From Planctomycetaceae bacterium (GTDB lineage: Bacteria > Planctomycetota > Planctomycetia > Pirellulales > UBA1268), in assembly GCA_947459185.1 (NCBI GenBank), contig CANHCU010000006.1:424-64423 (forward strand): a stretch of 64,000 bases of DNA, written 5' to 3'. This document shows positions 37,656 to 54,652 of this stretch, one piece after another. The notes beneath the pieces are model-generated. The model saw nothing but the letters and a program-made list of their open reading frames with translations. It did no database searches and had not been told where the DNA came from. The position numbers and the translations under genes are program-made. Positions within the stretch are counted from its first letter, which is position 1; the number at the start of each line of letters is the position of its first letter.

Positions 37656-40600
37656 ACATCGGCATCGTGTCGAAGAGCGTCGACCAGCAGGGCGGAGCCG
37701 AGATTTATCTTCTCGAGTGCATGCGTCGCTGGCAGAAGAAGGCGGACATCACGCTCTATTCCACGTGCATCGACCCGCAGCTTCTGGTCGATCATGGAAT
37801 TGATACCTCACGACTGATCCAAGTGCTCCTGCCGGGCTTCGAGGATCGTGACCGCCGGCCGTTCTCGCTGCTCGAGGATCTCATGATCCTGCCTCGGCTT
37901 TGGGAGGACCAACTCCGTAAGCACGACGTCTACTTCCTCAACGGGTGCCCGACGCAGATCATGCGTTGCTCGCCCAGCGTGTTCATGTGCCACGAGCCGC
38001 TGCGCATGCTCTACGACCTTCGTTATCTCGGGGAGCATGTACACGGCGACGAAGAACTCAGTGTCCATGTCTATCCCGAACAGGCATATCGCTGTGCACC
38101 CGTTCTGGAGATGGATGCCCAGATGGGCCTGCTCGAGTCGCTCGACCGTGGCACCGTCTTCGATCGAATGGCGGTCAACAGTCAAAACATGGCTCGGTAT
38201 GCGGAAAACGTTTACGGCCGTCGCCCCGACGTCATCGCCTACCCCGGAGTCAATGTCTGGGAGAAGCCGGGACGGCCCGCCGCTGGAAAGCGGGCTGTGT
38301 TCGTCGGGCGACTCTGGTCGCACAAGCGACTCGAACTCGCGATCAAGGCCATCGCGCTGGTGCCGGACGGCAATCTTGACATCGTCGGGCAAGGACCGGA
38401 CAGAGACAAACTGGAGGCGTTGGCCGCCAGACTGGGAGTTTCCGACCGAGTGGTGTTCCATGGCCGACTCCCGCAGCAGGATGTTGAACGCATCTATCGA
38501 GAAGCCACCTGCGGCGTCTATGTGCCGCTGCGTGAACCGTTCGGGATGATGCCGCTCGAAGCCGCCGCCGCCGGCCTGCCGGTGGTCGTCAGCCCCGAGG
38601 GTGGATACATGGAGATTCTCGGCGATCACGGGGCGATTGTCGTGCAACCGAACCCGAAGAGCATCGCCCGGGGGCTGGACCGATTGTTCAGCAACCCCGC
38701 CTTCGCCGCCACCATGGGCAGGCAGGCCGCCGCCGCAGTGGCAAACCACACTTGGGATCGCACCGCGGATGAACTATACGAACTGCTTATAGATGCGACA
38801 CGCGTACGCAAACTCCCTGTCCAGTCCACCGCCACCGACCGTCCGCTCCTCGGTGCTCATTACTATCCGTGGTACAACGCCGGCTCGCCGACGCGTCACT
38901 GGAATGAGAATTCCGAGTATTCCGGAGTCACGGATCGGCCTCAGCAGGGCTGCTACACCTCGCAGGACGATGAAACAATCCAGCATCATCTCGATCTGGC
39001 TGAGGAAGGCGGCCTCGATTTCCTCATCATCAATTTGGAGATCGGATCGACGGGAGCGAACGCACAGGATCTCGACGCGACGAGGCGGATGGTCGCCGCG
39101 GCAGAGGCGAGGAAGGGACGCGTGAGGGTGAGCGTGATGCTGAGCATTGGAACCGTGCTCGAGCATCCCGTCCGCACTGCCCTGCACAACATCCAGAAAC
39201 TCGCCGAGTCGCCCTCATGGCTCCACCATCGAGGGAAGCCGATGCTGTGGATATTTTTCTCGAACAACCTTCTCGGCTGCTACTTCACCAATCGAGCGAT
39301 GTTGGAGCGGGAGTGTGCGCGATTCAACGTAGTGGCGGCCGGTGCGATTTCCCTGCCGAGATGTCTCCCCATGTCGCTGCAGCAATTCGTAGTCGGATGG
39401 TGCCTCTACAAGCCCTTGCGCTACGCGGACGCGACAGAAAGCATCGCCTATGCGACGAGTTGCTATGCACGGCATGTCAACCATGGCCAGGACCCGATCC
39501 GGATCTTCGCCGTCTCGCCAGGATATGATGATCGTCACCTCACTGGCGATGCACGTCAGAGTGGAGACGCGCGGCGCGTAGATCGGGCCGATGGACGCAT
39601 CTACCAATCCATGCTGCACGCCGCGATCCAAGCCTCGCCGCGGCCGGAGATGGTCGTCATCACCAGCTTCAACGAATTCCATGAAAACACCCACATCGAG
39701 CCAAGCGTCAACTACGGCGACAGGTTCATTCGAATGTCGGCGGAATTCAGCCGTGCAGTGAAGGCCCGGCGCGATGATTGGCCTGACGACTTCGCGAGGC
39801 CAGCGTCAACCGCCTCGCGTGGATACGATCCACACTTTCAGGAGCTATCGGCCACAGACGTCCCCGAGCCAGCCACTCGGCAGAAAGGGGAGCGTGGACT
39901 CACGAAGCAGTTCCGAACAGCGGTCATCCATGTCGGCACCGACAAGACTGGCAGTACCGCGTTGCAGACGTCCATGGACGCCATGCGCAATGCGTTCGTG
40001 CGTCGTCGTAAAGTCGCATATCTGCCGGGACCCGTTCATCACATGCTGGGGTCGCACTTCAGCGCCGAACCTGAGCGGCTGGAGTTTAACATTGCCGAGG
40101 GATTCTCGAGTCGGTCAGCCATCCAGGAGCGAGATCGGGCCTATCTGACATCCGTCGAGCGGTTCCTGCAGACGGCCGGCGAGTGTGAGACTCTCTTCCT
40201 CTCCTTCGAAGGTTTCCACAGCCTCGCGGAGGAGACACTGGATTCACTGGTCGCTTGGGCGAGGTCCCACGCCGAATCGGTGACCGCCCTCATGTACGTG
40301 AGACAGCCTCACTCGTACGCGGTGAGTGCGCTCAGCCAGCGCGTGTTCAGTGGTCAAGCGGCGACGGCGACCAAGCCGCTTCCCCGCGTGAACACACGCC
40401 GCGTGCTGACACGCCTCGAGAATGCATTCGGGCAGGGGCGTGTGCTGGTCAGGGCCTATGAGGCATCGCAGCTCGTTGGGGGGGACATCGTGTCCGATTG
40501 CCTGCACGCAATCGGAGCGGAAGAGATCATCGGAACTGCCGATTATGTGCGCGGGGGGCAAGTCAACACTCAGATGTCTCGCGAGGCAGCGACGTTTGGC

Positions 40601-40894
40601 AAGGCACTGATAACGGCACTCACGGAAGGCGGCGCGAAGTTGCCGGACAGAACGTCGTGGAGGAAGTGCCGCGACTTGATTGCCACGATGCCCGGGCATC
40701 GGATTACATTGACGCCGAAACAGGCGGCGGAATTGTCGGATGCTACACAAAGTGACCTGTCACTGCTGAAGGCCGCATACGGGATCGAATTCCAAGAACC
40801 CGTTTCGAAGTACGTCGAGGACTCGGACTTCTCGGCAGAGACGGCCATGATCACAGAGATCGCGAAAGTCGTTGCCACGATGATGCCCCACTAG
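37652..40894 (+). CDS. three-domain enzyme: GT4 glycosyltransferase + GH99-like domain + sulfotransferase-like P-loop domain
   Basis: aa 1-385 are GT4 (VFVGRLWSHKRLELAI...FGMMPLEAAAAGLPVVVSPEGG). The middle domain reads LLGAHYYPWYNAG...HWNE...GCYTSQDDETIQHHL...VVITSFNEFHENTHIEPS (GH99-like). The C-terminus has VIHVGTDKTGSTALQ (PAPS-binding-loop-like). Confidence 0.8.
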   Translation: MNIGIVSKSVDQQGGAEIYLLECMRRWQKKADITLYSTCIDPQLLVDHGIDTSRLIQVLLPGFEDRDRRPFSLLEDLMILPRLWEDQLRKHDVYFLNGCPTQIMRCSPSVFMCHEPLRMLYDLRYLGEHVHGDEELSVHVYPEQAYRCAPVLEMDAQMGLLESLDRGTVFDRMAVNSQNMARYAENVYGRRPDVIAYPGVNVWEKPGRPAAGKRAVFVGRLWSHKRLELAIKAIALVPDGNLDIVGQGPDRDKLEALAARLGVSDRVVFHGRLPQQDVERIYREATCGVYVPLREPFGMMPLEAAAAGLPVVVSPEGGYMEILGDHGAIVVQPNPKSIARGLDRLFSNPAFAATMGRQAAAAVANHTWDRTADELYELLIDATRVRKLPVQSTATDRPLLGAHYYPWYNAGSPTRHWNENSEYSGVTDRPQQGCYTSQDDETIQHHLDLAEEGGLDFLIINLEIGSTGANAQDLDATRRMVAAAEARKGRVRVSVMLSIGTVLEHPVRTALHNIQKLAESPSWLHHRGKPMLWIFFSNNLLGCYFTNRAMLERECARFNVVAAGAISLPRCLPMSLQQFVVGWCLYKPLRYADATESIAYATSCYARHVNHGQDPIRIFAVSPGYDDRHLTGDARQSGDARRVDRADGRIYQSMLHAAIQASPRPEMVVITSFNEFHENTHIEPSVNYGDRFIRMSAEFSRAVKARRDDWPDDFARPASTASRGYDPHFQELSATDVPEPATRQKGERGLTKQFRTAVIHVGTDKTGSTALQTSMDAMRNAFVRRRKVAYLPGPVHHMLGSHFSAEPERLEFNIAEGFSSRSAIQERDRAYLTSVERFLQTAGECETLFLSFEGFHSLAEETLDSLVAWARSHAESVTALMYVRQPHSYAVSALSQRVFSGQAATATKPLPRVNTRRVLTRLENAFGQGRVLVRAYEASQLVGGDIVSDCLHAIGAEEIIGTADYVRGGQVNTQMSREAATFGKALITALTEGGAKLPDRTSWRKCRDLIATMPGHRITLTPKQAAELSDATQSDLSLLKAAYGIEFQEPVSKYVEDSDFSAETAMITEIAKVVATMMPH

Positions 40895-41961: not shown

Positions 41962-42214
41962 GAAACGCCTCGCTTGTCCATCGCCCGTCGTAGGCCTCCA
42001 AAACCATCACCGGCCAGGCGGTTGCCCAGCACGTGCCGCCACCAGTCTGGCCGGCTAACGAAGCTGGTGACGCCAGAGCACGCGGCGAAGCCCTCGTCGA
42101 TGTGCTACTCCCCCGAACATTTCCAAATGCCGTCAAACAGGTCGGTCTGCTAGCGAGCACCCACATGGCCGTCGCACTCCATTGCCATGAACACGCCTTG
42201 GCGTCTTGTGGTGA

Positions 42215-42405
42215 CTATTCGACGGCATCCACAAGCTCGGCAGTCACCCGCGCGGGCGAGCAACTCGATGCGATCGGCCGAAATCGCGTCGCAGTTGGAG
42301 TCGCCCCCCGCTTTCCCGTGTGAAACCGCCTTTGTTCGGTTCCTGTCCCCGCCACTTGAAGCCCGCCGGGCCCTCCATGGTTCGTGCGGCCTGTTTCTTG
42401 CGCGA
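42215..42405 (-). repeat. small-ORF-bearing dispersed repeat, copy 4 (internal deletion, frame broken)
   Basis: It contains CDAISADRIELLARA and then jumps to ...RVTAELVDAVE* in another frame. It shares the GTGGCGGGGACAGGAACCGAAC block with copies 1 and 5. Confidence 0.65.
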
Positions 42406-42427
42406 TAGCCGGCTGACGAATCCATGG

Positions 42428-43765
42428 TCAGCCGCCCGAACCCCTCAGTGCGACAAACGGTCGGGCCTTGCCACCGGGACCTGCCGGGATGGCGTCGACG
42501 CGACGGAGCGTGAAGTTGATGCACGCCGGCAGTGCCGCTCGTGCCGCGGCTACGAGCGACGCTTCCTCCGCTACTCCCATAGCCTCGGTGGCCACCACCA
42601 GATACTCCAACCGGTCGTCCGCCATCTGCGCAAGGCTCGCCTGCCGCACCATCCCCAGCCAGGGCCGAACGGCGTTGTGGATCGTCCACGGATGGAGGGA
42701 GATCCCGCCAGCGAGCCGGAACATCTCGATCGTTCGGCCATGAATCGCCATGAGCGTGGAATAGGGGGCCCCACAGGGGCAACGATCCGGCCCCCGCACC
42801 GCGAGATCGCCGATCGTGTAGCGGATGAAGGGCATCGCGAACGAATGCAGTCCCGTGACCACAACTTCGCCGGCCTGTCCCACCTCCACCGGCCTGCCGT
42901 CCGGCCCCAGCACCTCCAACACCACGGCGTCGTCACAGACGTGATAGGTGCCCTGCCCTGCCGGACACTGCCAAGCCAGCAGATTGAACTCATTGGAACC
43001 GTAGAGATCGCGGATCGGGCTGCCGATCGCCGCGATTGCGGCACGCAGCGGTGCGGTGAGCAGTTCGCCGGTCGTCACCACGAGCCGAGGTGAGAGCGTG
43101 AGCCGACGGGCGACCACCGTATCGACCAGAGCGGCCAGTGCGCTCGTCATCCCCGTGAGGCAGTGCGGAGCGAACCGGGCCGCCTTCTCTGCCGCTGCAT
43201 CGTCGCCGAGGGCATCGACGACCAGAATCTGTCGCCACCCTAGCGCCATGGCCAGCCGAGCCAGCCGCTGGTCGTCGCGCGGATCAGCATTGCCGTGGAA
43301 CAGGGCGTTGACCGTGCGTTCATGCCGGCCGACGCCATAGCTGCGAAAGGCACGCCAGCGGAAACAGTTGAGGAGCCGCTCTTCCAGCCAGGTTCGCCGA
43401 ATCGCCATGCGTTCGCCCGTCGACCCGCTGGTAGACCGATCCAGCAGCCGCTCGGGCGACACGTTCCCGGCCAGCGTCCCAGCGAGCCCCGCCTCCTGGT
43501 AGTCGCGGCGGGTGAGCACCGGAAAGCGTTGCAACTCCTCGCCCGCCCCGTCAGCGCCCAGCCTCGTCGCATGGGATGGTGCGCGGAGGTGAAACAACGG
43601 CACTTGCTGCCGAGCATGGGCCAAGAGCATGCTGAGTCGGGCATCGCGCCACCGGGCCACAGCTGCGGCGTCGCGTGGCTCCCGGAGCGTCGCGCGAAAG
43701 GCGTCCCATTGATGATGGCGCAGCCAGGCGATCCCGCTGTGCCATGTCGCATGCGATCTGGTCAT
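42428..43765 (-). CDS. phenylacetate-CoA-ligase/CapK/F390-synthetase-like adenylate-forming enzyme
   Basis: DRSTSGSTGERM (AMP-binding core motif), PaaK-like length and C-terminal domain. ATGA overlap with the upstream GT4. Confidence 0.8.
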   Translation of the reverse strand: MTRSHATWHSGIAWLRHHQWDAFRATLREPRDAAAVARWRDARLSMLLAHARQQVPLFHLRAPSHATRLGADGAGEELQRFPVLTRRDYQEAGLAGTLAGNVSPERLLDRSTSGSTGERMAIRRTWLEERLLNCFRWRAFRSYGVGRHERTVNALFHGNADPRDDQRLARLAMALGWRQILVVDALGDDAAAEKAARFAPHCLTGMTSALAALVDTVVARRLTLSPRLVVTTGELLTAPLRAAIAAIGSPIRDLYGSNEFNLLAWQCPAGQGTYHVCDDAVVLEVLGPDGRPVEVGQAGEVVVTGLHSFAMPFIRYTIGDLAVRGPDRCPCGAPYSTLMAIHGRTIEMFRLAGGISLHPWTIHNAVRPWLGMVRQASLAQMADDRLEYLVVATEAMGVAEEASLVAAARAALPACINFTLRRVDAIPAGPGGKARPFVALRGSGG

Positions 43766-44898
43766 GGTGCCTCCGACAGCAGTCGCGTCGCGTGTCGGGC
43801 CCGGGCTGCGTCATACAAAGCACGATACGCGGCGATCACTCCATCGGGGGCGTAGCGTTCGCGGGCGAGACGCCTGCCCGCGTGGCCATACGCTTCCGCG
43901 AGGCGATGCTGCATCAGGAGTTCGCACGCCGCCGCCGCCATCCCGTCGAGATCGCCCACCGGCAGGAGTCTGCCGCAGACGCCCTCCGCGACCACACCCG
44001 TCAGCCCTCCCACCCGCGTCCCCACCACCGGCACACCCGCAGCCATCGCCTCCAGCGCCGCCATCCCGAACGACTCGCAGGCACTCGGAAGCAGGAGCAC
44101 ATCCGCTTGGGCGAAGTAGGGTCCGACATGCGCGGTCGCCCCCACGAATGAAATGGTGTCGGCCACGCCAAGGCGAACTGCTTCAGAATGCATGGCACCT
44201 GCATCGGGACCTTCCCCCACCACCAGCAACCGGCAGCGCACACGCCGGTTCACACGGGCCAGGATTCCAACGCAGTCGACAGCTCGTTTCACCGGCCGGA
44301 GCGTCGAGACATGCAACAGCACCCGCTCGCTCCTGAAGTGGATCCGCCGTTCGATATCAGACAGGGGACTCGACGACACGCGCTCGATGCAGTTGGGAAT
44401 CACGACCGGCCGCGGAATGCCAAGCGACATGACTGCGGCATCTGCCAAAAAGGGACTCACCGCTGACACCCCATCGCTTGCGAAGAGTGCTGCGGAAATC
44501 GCTGGGGCCACGTCCGGGGCCATCGTCACGTCGGTGCCATGGAGGGTCGTGACCACCGTCGGCCTTCGCGCTGCCGGCAGCATCTCCCTGGCAGCGACAG
44601 CCGCCACCGCATGGGGGTTGGCATAGTGGGCATGCACGATGTCAAGACTGTCCTCCAACGCCACTGCGGCAATTGCGTGCGCGAGTCGCTGGACCTCCGC
44701 GGTCGATCCAGGCCGCAGCGGGTTACCGGCATCGGGAATGGCACGAAACAACACACCGCTATGCGGATGCAGCCGTTCCGGCGGCGCGGAAGCCAACAGG
44801 AAGACGCTGTGTCCAGCGGCCACAAGGTGGCCGGCGAGCGATGCAGCCACCGTGCTGCTCCCCCCGATGGCCGCAAAACAGACGACGCCGATCCGCAT
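43762..44898 (-). CDS. bshA: BshA-like GT4 (N-acetylglucosaminyl-malate synthase family)
   Basis: MRIGVVCFAAIGGSSTVAASLAGHLVAAGHSV, LDIVHAHYANPHAVAA, VVTTLHGTDVT, VSTLRPVKR, LLVVGEGPD and ESFGMAALEAMAAGVPVVGT parallel Bacillus BshA blocks, from my recollection of that sequence. A 378-aa product results with the ATG at 44898, preceded by GGAGGAG. Confidence 0.75.
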   Translation of the reverse strand: MRIGVVCFAAIGGSSTVAASLAGHLVAAGHSVFLLASAPPERLHPHSGVLFRAIPDAGNPLRPGSTAEVQRLAHAIAAVALEDSLDIVHAHYANPHAVAAVAAREMLPAARRPTVVTTLHGTDVTMAPDVAPAISAALFASDGVSAVSPFLADAAVMSLGIPRPVVIPNCIERVSSSPLSDIERRIHFRSERVLLHVSTLRPVKRAVDCVGILARVNRRVRCRLLVVGEGPDAGAMHSEAVRLGVADTISFVGATAHVGPYFAQADVLLLPSACESFGMAALEAMAAGVPVVGTRVGGLTGVVAEGVCGRLLPVGDLDGMAAAACELLMQHRLAEAYGHAGRRLARERYAPDGVIAAYRALYDAARARHATRLLSEAP

Positions 44899-44921
44899 GA
44901 TGTCACTCCTCCGACGATCGG

Positions 44922-45674
44922 CTACGGCAAGACATCGTAGGAGCGCGCAAACAGAGCGACCGGATCGTCGACCGACAGGCAGGTTCGCACCCAGAAGGCC
45001 TCGCCTGCGGCGGCGTTGATCGCTGCGCCATCTCCCCGCCGTCGGGCCATTACTCGGTGCAGAAAGTCTGGCTGCGACACCCCCGTCTCTCCCGCATTCC
45101 GCCCAGCCACGTGCCACTGCGAGCGGTGACAGCGCACCGCCCGCTCCCACTCCTCCTCCCAGCAGCCAACATCGACGACGAAAGTCGGTGGCGTCCCGCG
45201 AGGGAGGCCGAAGTGCAGGATCGCAGCCGGTCGGTGCGGGGGCGAATCGTCGACAGGGTATGCCCGCCGCAGCCCCGCCAGATAGGCAGCCGCCGTGACG
45301 ATCTTCGCGGTCGCTGCATGATCCGGATGCGGCTGATCTGCATGGTGCGTGAGCACCAACCGAGGCCTAAACCTGCGAAGCAACGCAACAACCGCGGCCC
45401 GGGCGGCATCCGAGTCTGTCAGCCGGCTGTCTCCGAGATCGAGTGACTCGCGGCATGCCGCGCCCAGCACGGCCGCGGCGGCCCGCGCCTCCGCGGCACG
45501 CTCAGCCACCGTACCGTGTGTGGCCGCCTCGCCCCGTGTCAGATCGACGATAGCGGTGCTGTATCCGAGCGAGGCCAACCGCAGGAGCGTGCCGCCGGCG
45601 TGGAGTTCGACGTCGTCGGGATGGGCACCGACGGCAAGGACATCAACAGTCAAGGTCTGGCTCATGGCCCACAT
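44922..45674 (-). CDS. bshB1: PIG-L family deacetylase, BshB1-like
   Basis: VLAVGAHPDDVELHAGGT, VDLTRGEAATHGT and HPDHAATAKIV. Gene order bshB1-bshA is the same as in Bacillus. Confidence 0.75.
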   Translation of the reverse strand: MWAMSQTLTVDVLAVGAHPDDVELHAGGTLLRLASLGYSTAIVDLTRGEAATHGTVAERAAEARAAAAVLGAACRESLDLGDSRLTDSDAARAAVVALLRRFRPRLVLTHHADQPHPDHAATAKIVTAAAYLAGLRRAYPVDDSPPHRPAAILHFGLPRGTPPTFVVDVGCWEEEWERAVRCHRSQWHVAGRNAGETGVSQPDFLHRVMARRRGDGAAINAAAGEAFWVRTCLSVDDPVALFARSYDVLP

Positions 45675-45770
45675 TGTATTTCGAATGTCGTTGGCCCGCG
45701 ACGCTGGGGCTCAATCCCGCTGCGTTCGACCGGGCGTGCCATGACGCGGCCTGGGGTTGGGCAGCCGAAA

Positions 45771-45824
45771 GCCTCGGACTGCGCGCGGCCGGTAGCTCAG
45801 CATGCCCAACTACCGGACTGCCAG
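45771..45824 (+). mobile_element. short IS3 right-end scar
   Basis: GCCTCGGACTGCGCGCGGCCGGTAGCTCAGCATGCCCAACTACCGG matches the subterminal palindrome region of the IS (9900-9950, reverse complement). It is preceded at 45707-45765 by a SprT-like relic (NPAAFDRACHDAAWGWA). Confidence 0.5.
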
Positions 45825-45834
45825 GGCGAACACC

Positions 45835-46464
45835 TCAGGCAAGACTTTGGCTCGTCACATCCTTGATCCAATGACGACGCCACGAACCAACCTTTATTCG
45901 GCGCATCAGAGAGCAGACCACGAAGCCATTCTTCGCATGGGCTCGCAACGCGGCATGATTCTCGGGGAGCGTGGCGCGGATGGCCATTTGCGTGCCCTCC
46001 TCACGGCAGCGTCGCAGCAATTCGTTGCTCAATGCTGGCGCGATACCCTGACCACGAAACTGCGGATCGGTATAGGCTTCGCACAGGTACACCGTTGCGG
46101 ACGGTAAGGGCAGTTCGTATTCCAAATACTCGATCCTGGCCGAGCGACCGACGACCCACATGGCGCCGACCAACCGCCCGTTCCAGCGACCGAGCAGGCA
46201 GCGCTGGCGGCTCTCCAGACGGCTGAGCAGTTCCTTCGGATCCGTGGCTGGTCGCATGGTCCGGTACTCACCGACCCCCTCCGGGAGCAGCCATTCCATC
46301 CTGATGGGCAACCGGCAGTCAACCCGCGACAGCGGCTCGTTCAGGGAGCGACGGAGCAGAAACAAGCGACGGTAGCCGAGCACATCGACTAGTTTGAACC
46401 AGAAGCTGCGTATTCCCTCACGCTGCAAGGTTTCCCATGCACGAGACATCCGTGACCCGTTCAT
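45835..46464 (-). CDS. GNAT family N-acetyltransferase
   Basis: YLCEAYTDPQFRGQGIAPALSNELLRRCREEG (acetyl-CoA binding motif A). Confidence 0.8.
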   Translation of the reverse strand: MNGSRMSRAWETLQREGIRSFWFKLVDVLGYRRLFLLRRSLNEPLSRVDCRLPIRMEWLLPEGVGEYRTMRPATDPKELLSRLESRQRCLLGRWNGRLVGAMWVVGRSARIEYLEYELPLPSATVYLCEAYTDPQFRGQGIAPALSNELLRRCREEGTQMAIRATLPENHAALRAHAKNGFVVCSLMRRIKVGSWRRHWIKDVTSQSLA

Positions 46465-47318
46465 GTCGAGATCCCGGACCGATGGCGATTGTAGAAGCCG
46501 AGTGCGCCGAATGCCGCTGGGGTCATCGCTCGACGGCCGAAGATGGAAGCCAGCTCGTGGACGCGTCGCAACAAGGACATGTTTGTCGCCAACTGCGTCC
46601 GCTCCGTATCAAACCAGATGTTGTCCTCCAGGCCGACGCGGACGCCGCCGCCTTCCACGATGGCCAGCGCGTTGGCACGCAGCTGCGCATCCCCGATGCC
46701 TCCAAGCGACCAGAGTCCGCCTGGGGGTACGTTTTGGAGCAGCAAAGCGACTTGTGCCAGGTCTGCCTGGGCGGTGGCGATATTGCCGACAAGCACGTTG
46801 AAGTAAAACGGCGGCTTCAATATGCCCTTGCCAGCCAGGTATTTCGCGAAATTGATCATTCCCTGGTCGAAGCACTCCAGTTCCGGCACCACCCCGTGCC
46901 CGGCCATGGCTTCGGCCAGTCGCTGGATCATTTCTGGTGAGTTGACGCTGGCCTCCCGGGAGAAGTTCAACGAACCCAAAGTCAGCGAGGCCATGTCGGG
47001 CCGGGCCTGGAGCACCGCGGAACGCTTCTCGAACTCGCCGTAATTGCGACCGCTTAACGAAACGCAGATGACGAGGTCGGGACAATGACGACGGATGCCG
47101 TCGAGTATCGGACCGTAGATCTCCGGCTCCCACGCAGGCGTGCCGTCTGCGTGCCTCGCGTGGACATGAACGACGGTGATCCCGATTGCGTGCGCCTCGT
47201 GGACTTGCTCGATGATTTCCGTCGCCGTTATCGGAACATGCGGCGTCACATCTTTGGTCGGCACCATGCCCGTCGGCACGAAATTGACGATAAGGTCGGG
47301 TCGGCTTGCAGTCGTCAT
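46461..47318 (-). CDS. BKACE family enzyme (3-keto-5-aminohexanoate cleavage-like, DUF849)
   Basis: LIVNFVPTGMVPTKDVTPHVPITATEIIEQVHEAHAIGITVVHVHAR and a TIM-barrel-like length. ATGA overlap with the GNAT gene. Confidence 0.8.
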   Translation of the reverse strand: MTTASRPDLIVNFVPTGMVPTKDVTPHVPITATEIIEQVHEAHAIGITVVHVHARHADGTPAWEPEIYGPILDGIRRHCPDLVICVSLSGRNYGEFEKRSAVLQARPDMASLTLGSLNFSREASVNSPEMIQRLAEAMAGHGVVPELECFDQGMINFAKYLAGKGILKPPFYFNVLVGNIATAQADLAQVALLLQNVPPGGLWSLGGIGDAQLRANALAIVEGGGVRVGLEDNIWFDTERTQLATNMSLLRRVHELASIFGRRAMTPAAFGALGFYNRHRSGIST

Positions 47319-47348
47319 GGGAGGAATCCTGCGGGCTCTGTCGTCGAT

Positions 47349-48635
47349 TCAAGAATGGAGTGAGCTCTTCGTGAGCATAGGACACTTTGCGCAACTGCGG
47401 ACTTTCACCTCGCAGCGTTCGAGATCGCACCGCACCGTATGCCCCTGCAGTGCAAGCCCGATTCGTTCGAGCCGTTGGTCGTGACGGCCTTTGATCAGCA
47501 CGACGTCACCCGGGCGCAACTCCTCCAGCAGCAGAGCCGAGGCCCGCGCGACACTGCTGCCCGCATCGTGGAGAGTGGCTTCGTCGTGGCCACCACGCCG
47601 GGCTCCCGCGGCATATCGCTGAAAGTTGCTCCCGATGATCACGAGTGAGTCGGTGACACGCCCAAACCGCTCCCCGAGGTCCCGATAGATCGGTCCTTGG
47701 CTCCCCGGTGGCTCGGTAACTTCCCCGAGAACGGCCAGACGGCGATCTGCGGGAACGTGTGCGAGCACATTCAAAGCCGGGCCGAAGGTTTCCAGGCCGG
47801 ATTTAAAGTCATCGCGCAACAGCCACGCTCCGTTGGGGAGCGCAACCGGCTCCAAGCGGCCGGGGGTGGGTGGCAAGTGGGTGAGACGGGGCGAGACCGC
47901 GTCGAACGCGAGTCCCGCGGCCTCCGCCACGGTGATGGCGGCGAGGATTGGGTAGAGCATGGTCTCCCCGAGCAACGGCACGTGCATCGCCCGCGTGACG
48001 TTGGCAGTCTCGAGTCGGAACCGGGTGCCGTGCGGCCAATCCAGGGCGACCTGTGCTGCCCGCACGTCGTTGCTGTCCCCCAGCCCGAACATGATCACGC
48101 GGGCCGCGGTCTGTGACTTCATCCACACCACGTTGGGGTCGTCGCCGTTGAGCACGGCCACGCCAGACCTGGACAAGGCACGCACCATCGCCGCCTTTTC
48201 GTGCCGGGTTGTTTCGATGGTTCCCAAGGACCGACCGTGTTCCGTGCCGATGCTTGTCACGACCACAACATCTGGTCGGAGAAGTGCGGCATACGTCGCC
48301 ATCTGACCGACGTCATCGATTCCCACCTCGATGACCGCATGCCGGTGCCAGGGCCTGATGCGCAACACGGCGCCAGCGACGTCAGACCACGCATTCCAGA
48401 GGTTTTGCCGATGCAAAGGCAGGCCCAAGGCAACGAGCGTGGCCCTGGTCGTCGTGGTCTTGCCATAGCTGCCGACAACGGCGATCAGGCATGTGCGCCG
48501 TGCCAACGTGCGACGATGCAGCCACGCGAGGACCGAGACAAGCGGCCAGCAACGAAACCACACGCCGCGGGCCACCTGCCACCGTCCAATCGGCGTCCGC
48601 AGCATGGCTGCGATTTCACTCACACGGTAACGCAT
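47349..48635 (-). CDS. Mur ligase family protein (MurF-like central and C-terminal domains, Cys-rich tail)
   Basis: IAVVGSYGKTTTTRATL P-loop, VVVTSIGTEH, LRDDFKSGLETF, and the tail VRCDLERCEVKVRSCAKCP. Confidence 0.75.
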   Translation of the reverse strand: MRYRVSEIAAMLRTPIGRWQVARGVWFRCWPLVSVLAWLHRRTLARRTCLIAVVGSYGKTTTTRATLVALGLPLHRQNLWNAWSDVAGAVLRIRPWHRHAVIEVGIDDVGQMATYAALLRPDVVVVTSIGTEHGRSLGTIETTRHEKAAMVRALSRSGVAVLNGDDPNVVWMKSQTAARVIMFGLGDSNDVRAAQVALDWPHGTRFRLETANVTRAMHVPLLGETMLYPILAAITVAEAAGLAFDAVSPRLTHLPPTPGRLEPVALPNGAWLLRDDFKSGLETFGPALNVLAHVPADRRLAVLGEVTEPPGSQGPIYRDLGERFGRVTDSLVIIGSNFQRYAAGARRGGHDEATLHDAGSSVARASALLLEELRPGDVVLIKGRHDQRLERIGLALQGHTVRCDLERCEVKVRSCAKCPMLTKSSLHS

Positions 48636-50494
48636 TCCAATCGCTTTCTAAACATGTCGTCCCACAATTGTGTTCCGGCGATCAAAAGTAGCAACCGGCT
48701 ATGGTCTGCCACGCCCGCCTCGTGGGCGCGGAGCAGCCCTGCCACGCAGGACGCATCGAAATAACCCGTGTCTCGTATGCGAGACGCCGACAAAGAATCC
48801 CGCACGACATCCGGCAACGGGGGCCGCATCCAGTCTTTCACCGGCGCCGACAAAGGACGCTTGCGTCGCCGGCATATGGGGGGCGGCAACACCCCGCGCA
48901 TTGCCCGCCTTAGGACGGCCTTTTCCTGAAGTCCGCGCAACTTGACCCACGGCGGTATCGTCGCGCAGAACTCCACCAGCGGGTGATCGAGAAAGGGGAC
49001 GCGGGCCTCCAGCGAGTACGCCATCGAGTGGCTGTCCAAGTGTTGCACCACGGACTCTGACAGTCGCATTTTGAAGTCCAAGTACTGCAGCTGGGCAAAT
49101 CGGTGCCAGCCTGCGAATTCTGCAGGCAACGGTGACGACTCTACGCCGCCCACTGCGTTATCCAGCAACAATCCGTCGGGCAGGTCGGCATTGGTCGCCC
49201 CGCCGGACAACGCCCGAAATCTCGAAACACCCATCGCGGCCGGCGCAAGCAGGATCGTTGAGGCACCGGGCCAGCGGCGGCGTAATACAGCCGCAGCCAA
49301 TCGCCGCAAGGCGAGTGGCCACCTGGCGGCTGGTGCCAGTGCCTTGTCGGCGCGATACCAGGCGTAGCCACCCAGTGCCTCGTCGGCACCTTCGCCGCAC
49401 AACACGACCTTGACCTCGCGGGCGCTCGCTTCCGCGATCAACATGCGCGATATGTCCACCCCTTGCCCGAAGGGCTGCTCCCGATGCCAGACGGCTCGGG
49501 GCAACAGCCCGCAGTGCTCACGCCGGCACTCGAGTCGCCGTCCAATCAGCTGGTACGACGGGTATTCATCGAGCAATCGATGGTACCTCAGTTCGTCCAC
49601 CTCTGGATTCTCGAAACCAAGTGTAAATGTCGGCAGTGGGCGAAGCAGTTCCATCTGCATCAGGGCTGCGACGGCACTCGAATCGATGCCCGCGCTCAGC
49701 CAGACGCCGACGGGTGCGTCGCTCCGCAGATGCAGTCGCACCGAGTGCGTCAGTTCGGCACGTAACTGATCTGCCCAGGCGTCATCGGAGCGACTGCGGT
49801 CATAGTCGGCGGCCGCGGGAAACGTAAGGTCCCAGTATTGGCGCGTCGCCACCGTTCCAGACTCGAAGGTGAGGCATTCGCCGGCACGCAGACGGTTGAC
49901 GCCGGCAACCATGCTGCGTGGCGTGCGAACGTAGCCGAACGTGAACACGTCACGCAGGGCGTTGTGATCCATGCACGCGGACACGCCGCCCGAAGCCAGG
50001 ATGGCCTTGAGTTCCGACCCGAAGACCACTCCTTCGTCCGTAAGGGCGTAGTGCAGGGGCTTGATGCCGAAGCGGTCGCGGGCCAGGGTCAGCCGCCGTC
50101 GGCGGGCGTCCCATACCGCGAGGGCGAACATGCCACGCAACTGCTCCACGAAGGCGGAAGGATCCTCCTCGTAGAGGTGAACGATCACCTCGGTGTCGGA
50201 CTGGGTGCGAAACCGGTGCCCGGCCGCCTGCAGCCGCGCCCGTAGTTCGACGAAGTTGTAGATTTCGCCGTTGCAAATCACGACGACTGATCCGTCCTCG
50301 TTGGCGATCGGTTGGTCGCCCGTGGCGGTGTCGATGATGCTCAGCCGGCGCATTCCCAAGCCGATGCCGGGACCGAAGTGGAATCCCTCGCTATCGGGGC
50401 CACGATGCCACATGATCTGCGTCATGCGGCGCAGTCGCGACTCATCCGTGCCGCGATTGGGGTCGGTACAGGCGATTCCCGCGATTCCGCACAT
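48620..50494 (-). CDS. asnB: asparagine synthase (glutamine-hydrolysing) family amidotransferase
   Basis: The N-terminal MCGIAG (catalytic Cys2) is present, with the PP-loop variant LSAGIDSSAVAAL. 624 aa. Confidence 0.9.
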   Translation of the reverse strand: MCGIAGIACTDPNRGTDESRLRRMTQIMWHRGPDSEGFHFGPGIGLGMRRLSIIDTATGDQPIANEDGSVVVICNGEIYNFVELRARLQAAGHRFRTQSDTEVIVHLYEEDPSAFVEQLRGMFALAVWDARRRRLTLARDRFGIKPLHYALTDEGVVFGSELKAILASGGVSACMDHNALRDVFTFGYVRTPRSMVAGVNRLRAGECLTFESGTVATRQYWDLTFPAAADYDRSRSDDAWADQLRAELTHSVRLHLRSDAPVGVWLSAGIDSSAVAALMQMELLRPLPTFTLGFENPEVDELRYHRLLDEYPSYQLIGRRLECRREHCGLLPRAVWHREQPFGQGVDISRMLIAEASAREVKVVLCGEGADEALGGYAWYRADKALAPAARWPLALRRLAAAVLRRRWPGASTILLAPAAMGVSRFRALSGGATNADLPDGLLLDNAVGGVESSPLPAEFAGWHRFAQLQYLDFKMRLSESVVQHLDSHSMAYSLEARVPFLDHPLVEFCATIPPWVKLRGLQEKAVLRRAMRGVLPPPICRRRKRPLSAPVKDWMRPPLPDVVRDSLSASRIRDTGYFDASCVAGLLRAHEAGVADHSRLLLLIAGTQLWDDMFRKRLECVTV

Positions 50495-50567: not shown

Positions 50568-50835
50568 TCATGGAAAAATCCAGGATTGGCAACGGCACTT
50601 CCGCTCTGCGACCACTCTCCCGAGCAATGCCGTCCGCTCAGCCTCGGCCATAGTCATGCCGGCCACGAGGATCACGGCGAGGGCGAGCAACTCGATGCGA
50701 TCAGCCGAAAGTGCGTCGCATTCTGCGTCGCACTTGGACACGACCCTCTGATTTCGCGACTGAAACCGCGTTTGTTCGCTTCCTGTCCCCGCCACTTTAC
50801 GCCCGCCGGGCCATCCCTGGCCGCTGCCGGCTCAT
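50568..50835 (-). repeat. small-ORF-bearing dispersed repeat, copy 5 (open 75-codon ORF, GTG start)
   Basis: MAGTGSEQTRFQSRNQRVVSKCDAECDALSADRIELLALAVILVAGMTMAEAERTALLGRVVAERKCRCQSWIFP*. Confidence 0.7.
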
Positions 50836-50882: not shown

Positions 50883-52013
50883 TCAGGCCCCTACGTCCCC
50901 CAGCAGGGCCACGAGTCGTGTCCGAAGAACGTCGATGTCGTAGTAGGCACGCTCGCCACATGAACCGGTTCCGGCGAACGGCAGGAAGTGCGACTCGGCC
51001 CCAGACAGGCTATCGCACATCAGCTGATTGAGCGTGAGCCCGCTGTTGCGTCGCGGTGTGCCCACATTGATCACGGGTGTGCCCGGTCGGACGAACACGC
51101 TGTTGTGCAGTGCCGATCCCTCGGCGCCAGCGATAATCTCAGCGCGTTGATACAGCGCCACCTGCCGCGCGAACGACCACTGCTGAGGGTGGAGGATGCG
51201 GAACCCAGCCGCAGTGAACACTCGCTCAACCTGTCGCTCGTTGCGCATCGGACGGTTACCATGAACTCGACGTCGCGAGAAGTAGAGACGCAAAGGCCCG
51301 TCGCCGGGCCAGCCCCGCAGGCGGTGAAGAAACCCCGGGCCGCAATCGGGCTGCGCGAGGCAGTGCTCCACAACACGTCGGTATGTAGCGGCCATGGCCG
51401 GTTCCACACCATTGCTGATCTCCAGCTGGGCGGTCGGCAGTACGACTCGCTCGAACCGTAGCGGCCGGCGCACCACGATCACCCTATCCAGCGGAATGCC
51501 GAAGCAGGCGAAGCACTCCCGGGCCGGTTGGAACCAGCGCGGCGTCAATGGCAGGCCGTAGAGATGGTGGAAGACGTAGTGGTCGAACGGGCCAAGTTGT
51601 TCGAGTGCCCAAAACCGAGAGAGGGTTTCGAGCAAAAAGTGGCCGTAGTGACGGGAGGAAATCCCTAGGTAGATGCTGCGACCAGGCACCCACCGTGCCG
51701 ACTGGTGCGGATCGATGTGATCCGGATCGCCGAGAATAAAATGCTCGCCTCTCGCACTGCGCTGCGAGGCTGGGCAACGTGAGCCGTCGCGGTCATAAAG
51801 GCATCCGCGAATGAGCTTTTTGCGCTGCGGCATTGCTACCACGGCCCGAGGCGTGGCGATGGCGTGCTCCAACTCCACGACCTGCTGGCTCCATGCAGGT
51901 AGCGGCACGCAGCGGTGTCCCCCGCGGGCTCCGGGCACGGGCCTCTCCCTGGGCAGGAGACTGCTGCTCCGTCGGCGACGGCTATCGGCGGCGTCCGCTG
52001 CTCGTTGTTCCAT
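50883..52013 (-). CDS. GT61/DUF563 family glycosyltransferase
   Basis: HYGHFLLETLSRFWAL, YFSRRRVHGNRPMRNERQVERVFTAAGFRILHPQ and AGAEGSALHN. The start is uncertain; MPQRKK at 51833 is an alternative. Confidence 0.8.
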   Translation of the reverse strand: MEQRAADAADSRRRRSSSLLPRERPVPGARGGHRCVPLPAWSQQVVELEHAIATPRAVVAMPQRKKLIRGCLYDRDGSRCPASQRSARGEHFILGDPDHIDPHQSARWVPGRSIYLGISSRHYGHFLLETLSRFWALEQLGPFDHYVFHHLYGLPLTPRWFQPARECFACFGIPLDRVIVVRRPLRFERVVLPTAQLEISNGVEPAMAATYRRVVEHCLAQPDCGPGFLHRLRGWPGDGPLRLYFSRRRVHGNRPMRNERQVERVFTAAGFRILHPQQWSFARQVALYQRAEIIAGAEGSALHNSVFVRPGTPVINVGTPRRNSGLTLNQLMCDSLSGAESHFLPFAGTGSCGERAYYDIDVLRTRLVALLGDVGA

Positions 52014-52797
52014 TCAGACGCCTCATGAGGGAGTGAGCGGCCTGTGTCAGGCTGCGGGGAGACGACTGCAATTGCAGAAGCCTCTCGCGAATGGTCCATG
52101 GGCCGTCGTCGATCAACCACGTGGTTCCGACGCACTTGAGCCGACGCCCTCTCCTGCGTGCCGATCTGGATGCAGGGTCCCGAATCGGAAACGAGTACCC
52201 ATCGCTCCAATTCCAATCGTCCCCGGCGATGACGGCGTCAGGAAAAAGCTCATCACACACCGGGATCTCGTGACCCTTCTTGTCGGCGTCGATGTACACC
52301 ATGTCGGGCCGTAGGCCCAGCGAGTGCAACTCCGGCAGTACGTCCAGCGACATACCTCGCACGTGAACGATCCGGTGCCGGACATCCCACATGGAGGAAA
52401 TGAACGACCGATAGACACCTTCCGGGGCATGGAGTTGGTCACGATAGGCACGGCCGATGCGATGGGCGGCGATTCCCGCCCCCGGGTCGATCAGGTCAGG
52501 CCAGGGGTCGACGCAGACCACGACGACCTCCCGCGACGCGGCCAGCCACTGACGGGCCGATCCCCCGAGGAACGAGCCGATCTCGAGCAGCACGTTGACG
52601 CCGCGCGATGCGATCGCGTCAGTGACCAGTCGCCGCCCTCCGTAATCCAGGCTCCACAGGATCGGCGACTCGGACGGCCGTTCCGTTGGCCAGGGGTATC
52701 GCGCCTTGAGGCTTGCGAGCGACTCGCGGGCCTGCAGCGCAGCACGACTCCCTCGCGCGGTCGCGGTGTCGGCGATGTTTGCTGCTCCTGTCGTCAT
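51982..52797 (-). CDS. class I SAM-dependent methyltransferase
   Basis: VNVLLEIGSFLGGSARQW (motif I) and MVYIDADKKG. The ATG at 52797 gives an ATGA overlap with the upstream stop. Confidence 0.8.
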   Translation of the reverse strand: MTTGAANIADTATARGSRAALQARESLASLKARYPWPTERPSESPILWSLDYGGRRLVTDAIASRGVNVLLEIGSFLGGSARQWLAASREVVVVCVDPWPDLIDPGAGIAAHRIGRAYRDQLHAPEGVYRSFISSMWDVRHRIVHVRGMSLDVLPELHSLGLRPDMVYIDADKKGHEIPVCDELFPDAVIAGDDWNWSDGYSFPIRDPASRSARRRGRRLKCVGTTWLIDDGPWTIRERLLQLQSSPRSLTQAAHSLMRRLNGTTSSGRRR

Positions 52798-53759
52798 GCC
52801 GCACGTGCGCTCGCGTCGCGAAGTCCGCGAGACTGCCACAGTCCCGCCCATGCTTTCCCGATGAGGTATGCGGTTCCCATGACGCAGAGAACCGGCAGGG
52901 CGAGCGGCAGCAGCAGCAGGCTCGATGGTTGCGTCCGGGCGATCTGCTGTAGCCTGCCTGCCAGTCGGCCGAGGACGCCATGCCCGGGCCTATCCGGGGC
53001 CATGGCACCAAGATACGGCCTGCCCGTCTCGCGGGCAGTGATGGCACGGATCGATGCAGCATCGCTGCCGAGACGGTAGTAACGGGCGATGACTTCAGAC
53101 GGCGGAACGACCGCGTGCCAGCCGCGCGCCCTGGGCTGCCGGAGAATGACTCCTGACTCCCGCATGACTCTCGCCATGTGAATGAGGTTCTGCCCGCGGT
53201 AGAGTTCGGCCGGATCGGGGAGCGGGACGCGTGTCAAGCTCGTCCTGCGGGCTGCGACGTTGTTCGCCCAGTACGTCGTGGTCGGGGCAAGGGCGGACTC
53301 GCCCGTGAGCCTCGGGAAATTGAACGTCATGGCAAATGCCAGCGAATACGGACCAGTGATCGGCGTGGTCGTCTCGCCGGCGATCATGTCGGCGTCCGGA
53401 CGTTGGCGAAAGCCATCGAGCAAGGCCTCGAGCCAGCCAGCTTCATAGACGACGTCACCGTCGCAGAACACGACGATTTCCGATCCCGTCTCGAGTGCGC
53501 CGGCAAGTTTCAAGTCGATGTACGACGCGCCGTTAGGTCTCTTCACGATGGTGACCCAAGGGTGGCGGCGGTGGATCTCGGCCAGAACTGTCTCGGGCAC
53601 CACGCCTCCGTCCGCCACGAACACGCCATCGGCCAGTCGCACGAGATCACCCTGCGACTTGATGCTGTCCAGGCAGCGGAAGAGTTCGTCGAGATCGACG
53701 ATGGCAAGGTTGTCCGTCTCGACGACGATGCAGAACGATGGAAACACCGTCTTATCCAT
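52794..53759 (-). CDS. GT2-like glycosyltransferase with C-terminal TM segment
   Basis: FCIVVETDNLAIVDLDELFRCLDSIKSQ...VVFCDGDVVYEAGWLEALL. Confidence 0.7.
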   Translation of the reverse strand: MDKTVFPSFCIVVETDNLAIVDLDELFRCLDSIKSQGDLVRLADGVFVADGGVVPETVLAEIHRRHPWVTIVKRPNGASYIDLKLAGALETGSEIVVFCDGDVVYEAGWLEALLDGFRQRPDADMIAGETTTPITGPYSLAFAMTFNFPRLTGESALAPTTTYWANNVAARRTSLTRVPLPDPAELYRGQNLIHMARVMRESGVILRQPRARGWHAVVPPSEVIARYYRLGSDAASIRAITARETGRPYLGAMAPDRPGHGVLGRLAGRLQQIARTQPSSLLLLPLALPVLCVMGTAYLIGKAWAGLWQSRGLRDASARAA

Positions 53760-53762
53760 GGC

Positions 53763-54611
53763 TCACTTCCTGATGACGTAGCCGCTCAAGCGGCCGATGG
53801 CCCATGCACAGAGACCCACCGCCAGCAAAAAGGCCAGCGTCGACGCCCGCAGGAAGCCGTAGGACTTGTTATGGACCGTTTTCCGAAAAACTGCCAGCCG
53901 ATCGCCCATCGTCAACGGCCGCACCGCGATCACGCGACGATAGGACTGCATGCTCCGGCCATAAGTGAACACCTTCCGCAGGTACGTTGCGACCCCGTCC
54001 ATCTCCAGGTGCGACACGATCATGGCGGGCACGAATGCTAGCGCGGAGCATCCCTCGCCATCGACGACGCGCCTCATGAAGATCGTGTCGGAGCCGCGGC
54101 TGCGATCGTCGAAGGGGCCATGGCGATCCCACGCCGCTCGCGTCACTCCCATGTTGTTCGTGTAGCCGTAGTATTTCGTGGGCTCTCCCGAGGTGAGCGC
54201 CCACTCGTCTCTCGTCGTGTCGTAGTCGCCGAGCATCCGATTGAGGCCGGTGTCGGGGGTCGGCCGGCGGACGCCAAGCGCCACGGCGACCCCCGGTTGT
54301 CGCATCGCTTCGAACAAGTGTCGCAGCCACGATTGTCCGGGCACGCAGTCAGGGTCGATGAAGGCGAGGATGCCACCAGTCGCGGCCGCCACGCCGGTGT
54401 TGCGAGCCATGTAGGCGCCGGGGCGGCTCTCAAGAAGCAGCCGCACCCGCGGGTCGGCCCGGAGGATCTTCGCCGAATCATCAGTCGATCCGTTGTCCAC
54501 GAAGATCCACTCCACGTCACCGTCGAAATCGTCCTGGGCTTGGAGTCCTGCCAGGCAGGCCGGCAAGGTCGCCGCAGCATCGAGCACCGGTACAATAATC
54601 GAGACGTCCAT
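53763..54611 (-). CDS. family 2 glycosyltransferase (paralogue of 24977-25891)
   Basis: MDVSIIVPVLDAAATLPACLAGLQAQ...WIFVDNGSTDDS...ILAFIDPDCVP. I chose the ATG at 54611; the track ORF extends to 54686. Confidence 0.9.
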   Translation of the reverse strand: MDVSIIVPVLDAAATLPACLAGLQAQDDFDGDVEWIFVDNGSTDDSAKILRADPRVRLLLESRPGAYMARNTGVAAATGGILAFIDPDCVPGQSWLRHLFEAMRQPGVAVALGVRRPTPDTGLNRMLGDYDTTRDEWALTSGEPTKYYGYTNNMGVTRAAWDRHGPFDDRSRGSDTIFMRRVVDGEGCSALAFVPAMIVSHLEMDGVATYLRKVFTYGRSMQSYRRVIAVRPLTMGDRLAVFRKTVHNKSYGFLRASTLAFLLAVGLCAWAIGRLSGYVIRK

Positions 54612-54652
54612 ATCGTCTAGTACCGGCTTTCCCAGCCGAGTAGCGCCTCTTC

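Follow-up and report, generated by a model that had tools for sequence, protein, structure and literature searches.

A bshB1–bshA–ligase trio in Planctomycetota as a candidate BshC-independent pathway of the bacillithiol/mycothiol type, next to a separate amide-forming gene module

What is made by a bacillithiol-type gene pair whose partner gene encodes an adenylate-forming ligase in place of BshC? This question is raised by a 64,000-nucleotide stretch of DNA from a Planctomycetaceae bacterium (contig CANHCU010000006.1 of assembly GCA_947459185.1), referred to here in its full length as the window, in which seven consecutive minus-strand genes include a bshB1–bshA pair. A preliminary description had treated the seven genes as one operon that could build an N-acylated or amidated glucosamine (GlcN)-malate metabolite or a decorated glycan unit. 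According to the present analysis, the block is two adjoining modules and not one conserved operon. Module 1 encodes an AsnB-type amidotransferase, a Mur-ligase-like enzyme, a beta-keto-acid cleavage enzyme (BKACE) and a GNAT acyltransferase; module 2, the trio, encodes a PIG-L/LmbE deacetylase of the BshB1 type, a family 4 glycosyltransferase (GT4) of the BshA type and a ligase of the PaaK/CapK family. We read the trio, with a probability of about 0.5, as a BshC-independent pathway of the bacillithiol/mycothiol type; module 1 is a separate set, which may act on the trio product in this lineage.

All seven open reading frames (ORFs) were recovered at exactly the coordinates of the preliminary description (Table 1), and scans against the Pfam and NCBIfam profiles bore out the family proposed for each protein. 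The junctions were likewise as described, with an overlap of 16 nt between the AsnB and Mur-like genes, ATGA overlaps at the BKACE/GNAT and GT4/ligase junctions, and the sequence GGAGGAG situated 7 nt upstream of the GT4 start codon (ATG at 44898). The ligase gene is, as had been noted, translationally coupled to bshA.

To assign the first two enzymes of the trio, profile scores, solved structures and phylogeny were used. The GT4 protein reached 301.8 bits on the BshA model TIGR03999 (cut-off 273.7), compared with 113.6 bits on the next model and only 62 bits on the MshA model. Its top matches in the PDB were the BshA structures 2JJM, 3MBO, 5D00 and 6N1X, the first three at about E 1e-55, and its homologues carry the name BshA at NCBI and JGI. 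All 12 of the BshA-type GT4 proteins that partner the ligase in trio loci scored far more strongly on BshA (best E 2e-127) than on other families (best E 4e-42), and a neighbour-joining (NJ) tree placed the trio BshA proteins beside the canonical ones.

The PIG-L protein scored 218.5 bits on the BshB1 model TIGR04001 (cut-off 182.5), and its closest solved relatives are TT1542 (1UAN), BshB1 (6P2T) and BC1534 (2IXD). Its metal-binding residues H18, D21 and H116-P-D-H119 were invariant in 11 trio homologues; in BshB, the zinc ligands are His12, Asp15 and His113 (PMC5790435). BshB1 was the best match, far above any other family, of all 11 PIG-L proteins from the trio loci, and in the NJ tree the trio BshB1 proteins formed one clade nested inside canonical BshB1, sister to Blastocatellia. 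HMMER alignments to solved BshA (2JJM, 3MBO, 5D00) and BshB1 (6P2T, 2IXD) show the motif blocks from which the two families had first been recognised by eye. Thus, the two proteins are members of the BshA and BshB1 families by curated thresholds as well as by phylogeny, and a position outside these clades, which the preliminary description had allowed for, was not observed. From this family membership, the GT4 enzyme is predicted to use UDP-GlcNAc and L-malate for the synthesis of GlcNAc-malate, and the PIG-L enzyme to turn GlcNAc-malate into GlcN-malate.

To see how constantly the ligase accompanies this pair, orthologue loci were collected as loci of ligase homologues, and trio relatives were identified by tblastn and from called-gene tables in genome and metagenome loci, which are cited here by L number. 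A protein search with the ligase returned about 68 clusters at an identity of at least 46%, with the next ones at 42% or below, and scans of species-representative genomes gave 13 ligase orthologue loci (at least 46% identity), all of them in metagenome-assembled genomes (MAGs). Ligase orthologue loci, many of them from freshwater samples, were found in Pirellulales, Planctomycetaceae, Planctomycetales, Isosphaeraceae, Limisphaerales, Akkermansiaceae, Verrucomicrobiales, Binatia and a deltaproteobacterium. The order PIG-L, GT4, ligase is kept in 15 of the 18 other orthologue loci (ligase identity at least 47%), frequently with stop/start overlaps, in Pirellulales, Planctomycetales, Isosphaeraceae, Limisphaerales, Akkermansiaceae, Verrucomicrobiales and Binatia. 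In a sixteenth locus (L002), bshA is adjacent to the ligase gene and the contig ends before the position of bshB1. Co-conservation of the coupled ligase with bshB1–bshA therefore extends across phyla. Around the trio usually lie housekeeping genes with no relation to it, tyrS, ABC-F, serA and trigger factor among them. A locus from Verrucomicrobiota is 65–70% identical to the window across all three trio proteins, which points to movement of the trio between phyla as a unit.

All-against-all clustering of the ORFs flanking the trio revealed nothing recurrent except the GNAT and phylum-level synteny. Thiol-related genes were considered as trio neighbours and set aside as too sporadic (DinB/MST 3 kb from L005, serA and an aminotransferase near L005 and L038, a GST near L009). 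One Limisphaerales MAG carries the trio and a GNAT on two contigs (L013, CBDIPJ010000027.1; L014, CBDIPJ010000005.1) with identical match coordinates and identities, which may reflect a duplication, haplotypes or assembly redundancy.

The distribution of bshC was then compared between canonical and trio loci. Canonical loci (n = 79) were obtained with a BshB1 alignment, and BshC sequences were taken from their bshC–bshB1 operons. An ORF of about 536 residues is located directly upstream of bshB1 in Acidobacteriota, Thermoanaerobaculia and one Phycisphaeraceae MAG; for the two copies scanned, TIGR03998 (BshC) was the sole match, and homologues of the Phycisphaeraceae copy carry PF10079 and are named BshC. 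With eight BshC sequences as tblastn queries across the 2.8 Mb of collected loci, bshC turned up immediately upstream of bshB1 at 13 of the 79 canonical loci, and no copy was found in the 64-kb window, as the preliminary description had it for this neighbourhood, or in any of the 19 trio loci (362 kb in total). The trio ligase, in turn, was found in none of the 79 canonical bshB1 loci. At the level of the gene neighbourhood, the arrangements [bshC]–bshB1–bshA and bshB1–bshA–[ANL ligase] exclude each other, and we infer that bshC is absent from the remainder of the trio-bearing genomes also.

This pattern is in line with published surveys. Among the Planctomycetota in RefSeq, a complete BshABC set was recorded in 2025 for two species only, Engelhardtia and Saltatorellus being Planctomycetota with BshC, and for no member of the Verrucomicrobiota, Thermodesulfobacteriota or Pseudomonadota (PMC12719100 supplement). 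Hiras et al. (2018) list Verrucomicrobia and Planctomycetes as lineages without a documented or predicted low-molecular-weight thiol (PMC6282198). In the searchable literature, no description of a bshB1–bshA pair with this ligase was found. A canonical bshC–bshB1–bshA operon was encountered in a Phycisphaeraceae MAG of the Planctomycetota (L128:5029-8573), and it lengthens a very short list of planctomycetes with the full canonical bacillithiol gene set.

The third trio protein was analysed by profile and by fold. Its Pfam AMP-binding match is weak, it scored 34.2 bits on the PaaK model TIGR02155 (cut-off 646.3), and its best NCBIfam match was the DVU_1553 family with 103 bits (cut-off 300). 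An identity as PaaK itself or as a member of any named family was rejected since the scores stay below all curated cut-offs. A ligase profile matched PaaK at E 1e-31 to 1e-33. The AlphaFold model (predicted local distance difference test, pLDDT, 85; predicted template modelling score, pTM, 0.83) matched PaaK1/2, BT_0428, AjiA1, NatL2, ClxA and HCL over the full length in Foldseek, at about E 1e-23 and 19–23% identity. In 27 ligase orthologues, STSGSTG, YGxNE, RYxxGD, GRT and K432 were invariant; we take these positions to be the core motifs A3, A5, A7 and A8 and the A10 lysine of the ANL superfamily. Given the invariant motifs and the PaaK-type predicted fold, the ligase looks active. In the profile alignment, the PaaK stretch YGYGLFTGG, which presumably lines the aryl pocket, aligns to F..DPRDDQ with an invariant Asp in the ligase. 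The replaced stretch hints at a different, possibly cationic, substrate.

Class-I S-adenosylmethionine-dependent methyltransferases recur near ligase orthologues and paralogues (L003:5896-8025, L015:3380-4222, L008 and L026). NmbA was considered for the methyltransferases near trio and paralogue loci and discarded, the matches being weak and generic (best, DVU_1556 family at about 40 bits). The DVU_1556 match of the methyltransferases and the DVU_1553 match of the ligase hint at a link to an uncharacterised Desulfovibrio gene cluster. In L003, an ATP-grasp ligase gene is divergent from the trio.

Combining these assignments, the following route is the one we favour. BshA would join UDP-GlcNAc and L-malate, BshB1 would strip the acetyl group and thereby free the C2 amine, and the ligase would turn a carboxylic acid into an acyl-adenylate and pass the acyl group to the C2 amine, yielding an N-acyl- or aminoacyl-GlcN-malate. 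The ligase is thus a candidate for the place taken by BshC in canonical operons. As acyl donor, cysteine comes first among the candidates, with a minority share of our belief, on account of the position of the ligase in the BshC slot, the adenylate chemistry of MshC, which makes Cys-GlcN-Ins via cysteinyl-adenylate, and the GNAT that accompanies some trios. A GNAT at the trio would imply an amine on the acyl group that is added, as with MshD in mycothiol. With cysteine as donor, the product would be bacillithiol or a close analogue. The stronger version of this proposal, in which the ligase truly joins cysteine to GlcN-malate as a non-orthologous replacement of BshC, and the trio gives a thiol that is N-acetylated where the GNAT is present, is held tentatively and is, in our estimate, rather doubtful.

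The likeness to the bacillithiol system BshA–BshB1–BshC lies in the first two enzymes, which belong to the same families by curated cut-offs of hidden Markov models, and in the gene order: bshB1–bshA is arranged as in Bacillus (PMC5790435), Blastocatellia and Phycisphaeraceae, with an amide-forming third gene attached. The third enzyme, however, has the ANL/PaaK fold and is not BshC (PF10079), its gene lies downstream of bshA whereas canonical bshC lies upstream of bshB1, and the hosts of the trio belong to phyla in which complete BshABC is nearly or wholly absent from RefSeq (PMC12719100 supplement).

From mycothiol biosynthesis (MshA–MshB–MshC–MshD), the window shares a GT4, a PIG-L deacetylase, an adenylate-forming ATP-dependent ligase and a GNAT for capping an amine. 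The two systems differ in that the trio glycosyltransferase is of the malate-type (BshA) family and MshA uses inositol phosphate, that MshC is a paralogue of cysteinyl-tRNA synthetase and the trio ligase an ANL enzyme, and that MshD has two GNAT domains compared with one in the window GNAT. The PaaK-family enzymes NatL2, AjiA1, ClxA and BagE resemble the trio ligase in fold and length (about E 1e-21 to 1e-23), but with an identity of 19–23%, and their substrates are aminohydroxybenzoates. In NatL2, AjiA1 and ClxA, the adenylate is captured directly by an O or N nucleophile without coenzyme A (CoA), giving ester or amide bonds. A GlcNAc transferase followed by an LmbE/PIG-L de-N-acetylase that exposes the sugar amine is also found in aminoglycoside biosynthesis (NeoM/NeoL, BtrM/BtrD) and in the glycosylphosphatidylinositol (GPI) pathway (PIG-A/PIG-L). 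The window proteins match the BshA and BshB1 models best, and above the cut-off, ahead of the other families scored.

Several observations weigh against a BshC-independent thiol-type pathway. We infer each of its chemical steps, and the acyl donor, from sequence. The window BshA exceeds its cut-off by 28 bits only. To our knowledge, the characterised substrates of the PaaK family are all aryl or alkyl acids, with no amino acid among them. Paralogues of the ligase at 33–42% identity are located in polysaccharide-type clusters, and the surroundings of the block in the window are a large island of glycan genes (37652-40894 and 50883-60275). In L015, the ligase occurs with a GNAT and a methyltransferase and no adjacent bshA or bshB. 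In L009:4748-8800 (the same as L032), the deltaproteobacterial orthologue (52–56% identity) is coupled to a non-BshA GT4 (73 bits) and is followed by a GST-fold protein and a HAD hydrolase, with no adjacent PIG-L. Finally, the trio is rare, which rules it out as a thiol pathway general to these phyla.

The proteins of module 1 were assigned in the same way. The AsnB-type protein starts with MCGIAG, which includes the N-terminal nucleophile Cys2, has the Pfam domains Asn_synthase and GATase, and scored 431.9 bits on TIGR01536 (cut-off 267.1); on the XrtA/PEP-CTERM amidotransferase model TIGR03108, the cut-off of 816.9 was not reached (500.6 bits). The Mur-like ligase contains Mur_ligase_M (PF08245, 77.9) and Mur_ligase_C (PF02875, 35.9), both above the Pfam gathering scores, and an invariant P-loop, GSxGKTT. 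It does not reach the cut-off of the MurF model TIGR01143 (168.3 bits, cut-off 288.6), and its match to this model begins at model position 74, the N-terminal UDP-MurNAc-binding domain being absent. At its C-terminus, C403, C408, C415 and C418 are invariant (CX4C...CX2C, residues 403-418) and likely form a zinc-binding motif; we know of no such four-cysteine motif in MurF. The BKACE protein scored 259 bits on Pfam PF05853 and 220.6 bits on the Kce model NF052387 (cut-off 382), and the GNAT has a single Acetyltransf_1 domain. The order BKACE directly followed by GNAT recurs three times, including L054 and L007, and because of this recurrence it is suggested that BKACE makes the acyl-CoA from which GNAT transfers the acyl group.

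Relatives of module 1 were located by a scan with an alignment of the Mur-like ligase, followed by tblastn (L040, L041, L042, L044, L046, L047, L054 and L057, the last with its match at about 8001-9270). Orthologues of the Mur-like ligase with 45–57% identity come after AsnB in many phyla and do not lie in dcw clusters. The order GNAT–AsnB–Mur-like ligase is found in Casimicrobiaceae and other beta-proteobacteria, a Kuenenia MAG (L042) has AsnB–Mur-like ligase with a convergent GNAT, and Prosthecobacter (L054:8001-10846) has Mur-like ligase–BKACE–GNAT, with 66% identity for BKACE and 44% for GNAT. At these beta-proteobacterial, Kuenenia and Prosthecobacter loci, no bshA, bshB or trio ligase was detected by tblastn. 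Genes for GT2, epimerase/dehydratase, methyltransferase, UDP-GlcNAc 2-epimerase and polysaccharide deacetylase adjoin the module elsewhere. The GNAT subfamily is shared more widely (28–44% identity): its members stand beside the trio in four verrucomicrobial loci, beside AsnB–Mur-like ligase in beta-proteobacteria and beside CapK paralogues in Desulfobulbaceae. We regard module 1 as an independently conserved amide-forming and N-acylating tailoring module or glycoconjugate module, which in this lineage may further modify the trio product or an unrelated glycan. Ligase paralogues with 27–42% identity adjoin homologues of the Mur-like ligase, AsnB, GNAT or BKACE in several clusters, and a functional tie of CapK-like ligases with this tailoring set that is not specific to the trio is plausible.

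The closest known counterpart of module 1 is the trio for N-acetylglutaminylglutamine amide (NAGGN), Ngg/AsnO, which likewise combines a GNAT, an ATP-dependent amide ligase and an AsnB-type amidotransferase. On the NAGGN amidotransferase model, the window AsnB scored 373 bits, below the cut-off of 570; moreover, the NAGGN ligase is of the ATP-grasp type and that of module 1 has the Mur fold, BKACE is an addition here, and module 1 elsewhere sits with GT2, epimerase and methyltransferase genes. In the Casimicrobiaceae MAG (L041:9363-11003 and 11225-12265), a class-I pyridine-nucleotide disulfide oxidoreductase with a dimerisation domain and a DoxX protein are encoded convergently to GNAT–AsnB–Mur-like ligase.

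The separation of the two modules bears directly on the idea that all seven genes serve one obligatory pathway, in which PaaK-like acylation, Mur-like extension of a carboxylate, AsnB amidation and GNAT N-acylation with acyl-CoA supplied by BKACE would lead to a heavily decorated, largely uncharged GlcN-malate metabolite. The seven genes run in one direction, overlapping or separated by short gaps, CapK-like ligases adjoin homologues of the Mur-like ligase, AsnB, GNAT or BKACE in L007, L008, L023, L026, L049, L054 and L058, and the same GNAT subfamily adjoins the trio in Verrucomicrobiota. Conservation of the neighbourhood was observed across phyla for the trio; the seven-gene unit was found outside the window only in L034 (92% identity), between different flanks and with no other glycosyltransferase nearby. 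The four module 1 genes are absent from 16 of the 17 other bshA–ligase loci, including relatives with 93%, 86% and 79% identity, and the set or parts of it occur in many phyla without bshA, bshB or this ligase. Furthermore, a gap of 160 bp splits the modules. It is 89% conserved over its full length in L034, but in the trio-only relative L001 only the 82 nt proximal to bshB1 are kept and the distal, palindrome-bearing part is not, which fits a separate transcription unit of the trio, with the proximal 82 nt being the likely leader or promoter region. An obligatory seven-gene route is, on balance, unlikely. About equally unlikely, in our view, is that the ligase is an ordinary acyl-CoA ligase from whose product the GNAT moves the acyl group to the amine of GlcN-malate, giving a non-thiol N-acyl-GlcN-malate such as an osmolyte, a signal or a surfactant-like molecule. 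It would fit with PaaK, HCL and BT_0428, the closest folds, being CoA ligases, with a related GNAT beside the ligase in the window, L012, L013, L015 and L017, and with the translational coupling of the GNAT to BKACE, another producer of acyl-CoA. It would leave 9 of the 17 other bshA–ligase loci, for example L004, L005, L016, L020, L035, L036 and L038, without a neighbouring GNAT of this subfamily; elsewhere the GNAT goes with module 1, and the fold is just as close to that of PaaK-family members that dispense with CoA.

Two further explanations concern the pathway as a whole. Ordinary bacillithiol could be made by a BshC encoded at a distance, leaving the ligase a secondary role in recycling, conjugate handling or modification of bacillithiol or GlcN-malate. 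There is precedent for BshC in some Planctomycetota (Phycisphaeraceae L128, Engelhardtia and Saltatorellus), but the lack of any bshC in the 362 kb of trio flanks, set against its adjacency in 13 of 79 canonical loci, the lack of any RefSeq member of the Verrucomicrobiota with complete BshABC, and the separate clade of the trio BshB1 proteins, which suggests co-evolution with the ligase, make this explanation slightly more improbable than the preceding two. Least probable of all is that the BshA and BshB1 matches are misleading, and that GT4, deacetylase and ligase build or decorate a cell-surface glycan or a lipid-linked sugar. The glycan island around the block (GT61, two GT2s, methyltransferases, a GT4–GH99 fusion and a CotH kinase) would agree with a glycan role, as would the polysaccharide-type clusters that hold ligase paralogues and module 1 homologues, the narrow 28-bit margin of the window BshA and the GT4 and PIG-L pairs of the GPI-anchor and aminoglycoside pathways. 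Against it, the surroundings of the trio in most other genomes are housekeeping genes and include no flippase, polymerase or further glycosyltransferase, the two enzymes fall within or next to the canonical BshA and BshB1 clades, and some trio BshA proteins lie far above the cut-off (best E 2e-127). The BshC-independent pathway of the bacillithiol/mycothiol type remains our preferred reading of the trio.

If, in addition, cysteine is the acyl donor, a bacillithiol-type low-molecular-weight thiol would exist in some freshwater Planctomycetota, Verrucomicrobiota and Binatia, where no pathway to a thiol had been predicted before. Genetics shows BshC to be required, but nobody has reconstituted its reaction in vitro or demonstrated an activated cysteine donor (PMC5790435), and how bacillithiol synthesis ends is still an open problem. 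A ligase in the operon slot of BshC can be assayed directly with GlcN-malate and, with cysteine as donor, would make the last bacillithiol step accessible to biochemical study. With a donor other than cysteine, a three-gene cassette that crosses phyla would still yield a new GlcN-malate conjugate. Module 1, in turn, is a widespread and uncharacterised set of three to four genes (AsnB, Mur-like ligase, BKACE, GNAT) that is now delimited beside sugar-nucleotide-modifying genes.

The gap between the modules was searched for regulatory elements. No Rfam family matched it, shuffled sequence folds at least as well, and it contains no sigma-70-like site, a consensus that may not fit planctomycete promoters; terminator-like sites occurred at the chance rate, with no terminator consensus in the gap. 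The SprT-like and IS3 scars that the preliminary description had placed in the gap found no backing in anything we ran, although no search was aimed at those families. What the gap does contain is one of four window copies of a near-perfect 28-nt palindrome, CCGGTAGnTnnGCATGCCCAnCTACCGG, for which 0 copies are expected by chance (Table 1). The exact pattern was found in none of the 36 collected loci examined for it. The palindrome may be an element similar to repetitive extragenic palindromic (REP) sequences, an operator or an RNA hairpin.

The small-ORF repeat copies that had been said to bracket the block proved to be real direct repeats sharing a minus-strand peptide (..CDAxCDAISADRIELLAxAVILVAGM..AEAER..), for which no Pfam match was obtained. 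The repeat unit is 130–220 nt long. The elements at 42250-42380 and 50600-50820 are 79–85% identical, with other copies near 3.1 kb and 32.2 kb; the 42-kb copy, downstream of the ligase gene, is degenerate, and the copy at 50571..50831 lies upstream of AsnB. Copies are found at the boundaries of gene blocks. In L034, copies are present at about 11.4, 14.8 and 17.8 kb, and the downstream copy of the block is conserved there but the upstream copy is not.

Table 1. Positions of the seven genes, the intermodule gap and the repeated elements in the window.
Feature	Coordinates	Strand	Remark
AsnB-type glutamine-hydrolysing amidotransferase	48620..50494	-	First gene of module 1
Mur-ligase-like ATP-dependent amide ligase	47349..48635	-	Module 1
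BKACE (DUF849) beta-keto-acid cleavage enzyme	46461..47318	-	Module 1
GNAT N-acyltransferase	45835..46464	-	Last gene of module 1
Gap, 160 bp	45675..45834	none	Between modules 1 and 2
BshB1-type PIG-L/LmbE deacetylase	44922..45674	-	First gene of trio (module 2)
BshA-type GT4 glycosyltransferase	43762..44898	-	Second gene of trio
PaaK/CapK-family (ANL superfamily) adenylate-forming ligase	42428..43765	-	Third gene of trio
28-nt palindrome copies	9902-9929, 35993-36020, 45789-45816, 55900-55927		Copy at 45789-45816 in gap
Small-ORF repeat copies	3018-3455, 32145-32333, 42153-42593, 50571-50831	-	

In the glycan-gene island surrounding the block, the GT4–GH99 fusion is 1080 residues long and is accompanied by the GT61, the two GT2s and two Methyltransf_24 proteins. 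A beta-helix/NosD-like protein and a CotH kinase with a C-terminal GH65 domain are encoded there also.

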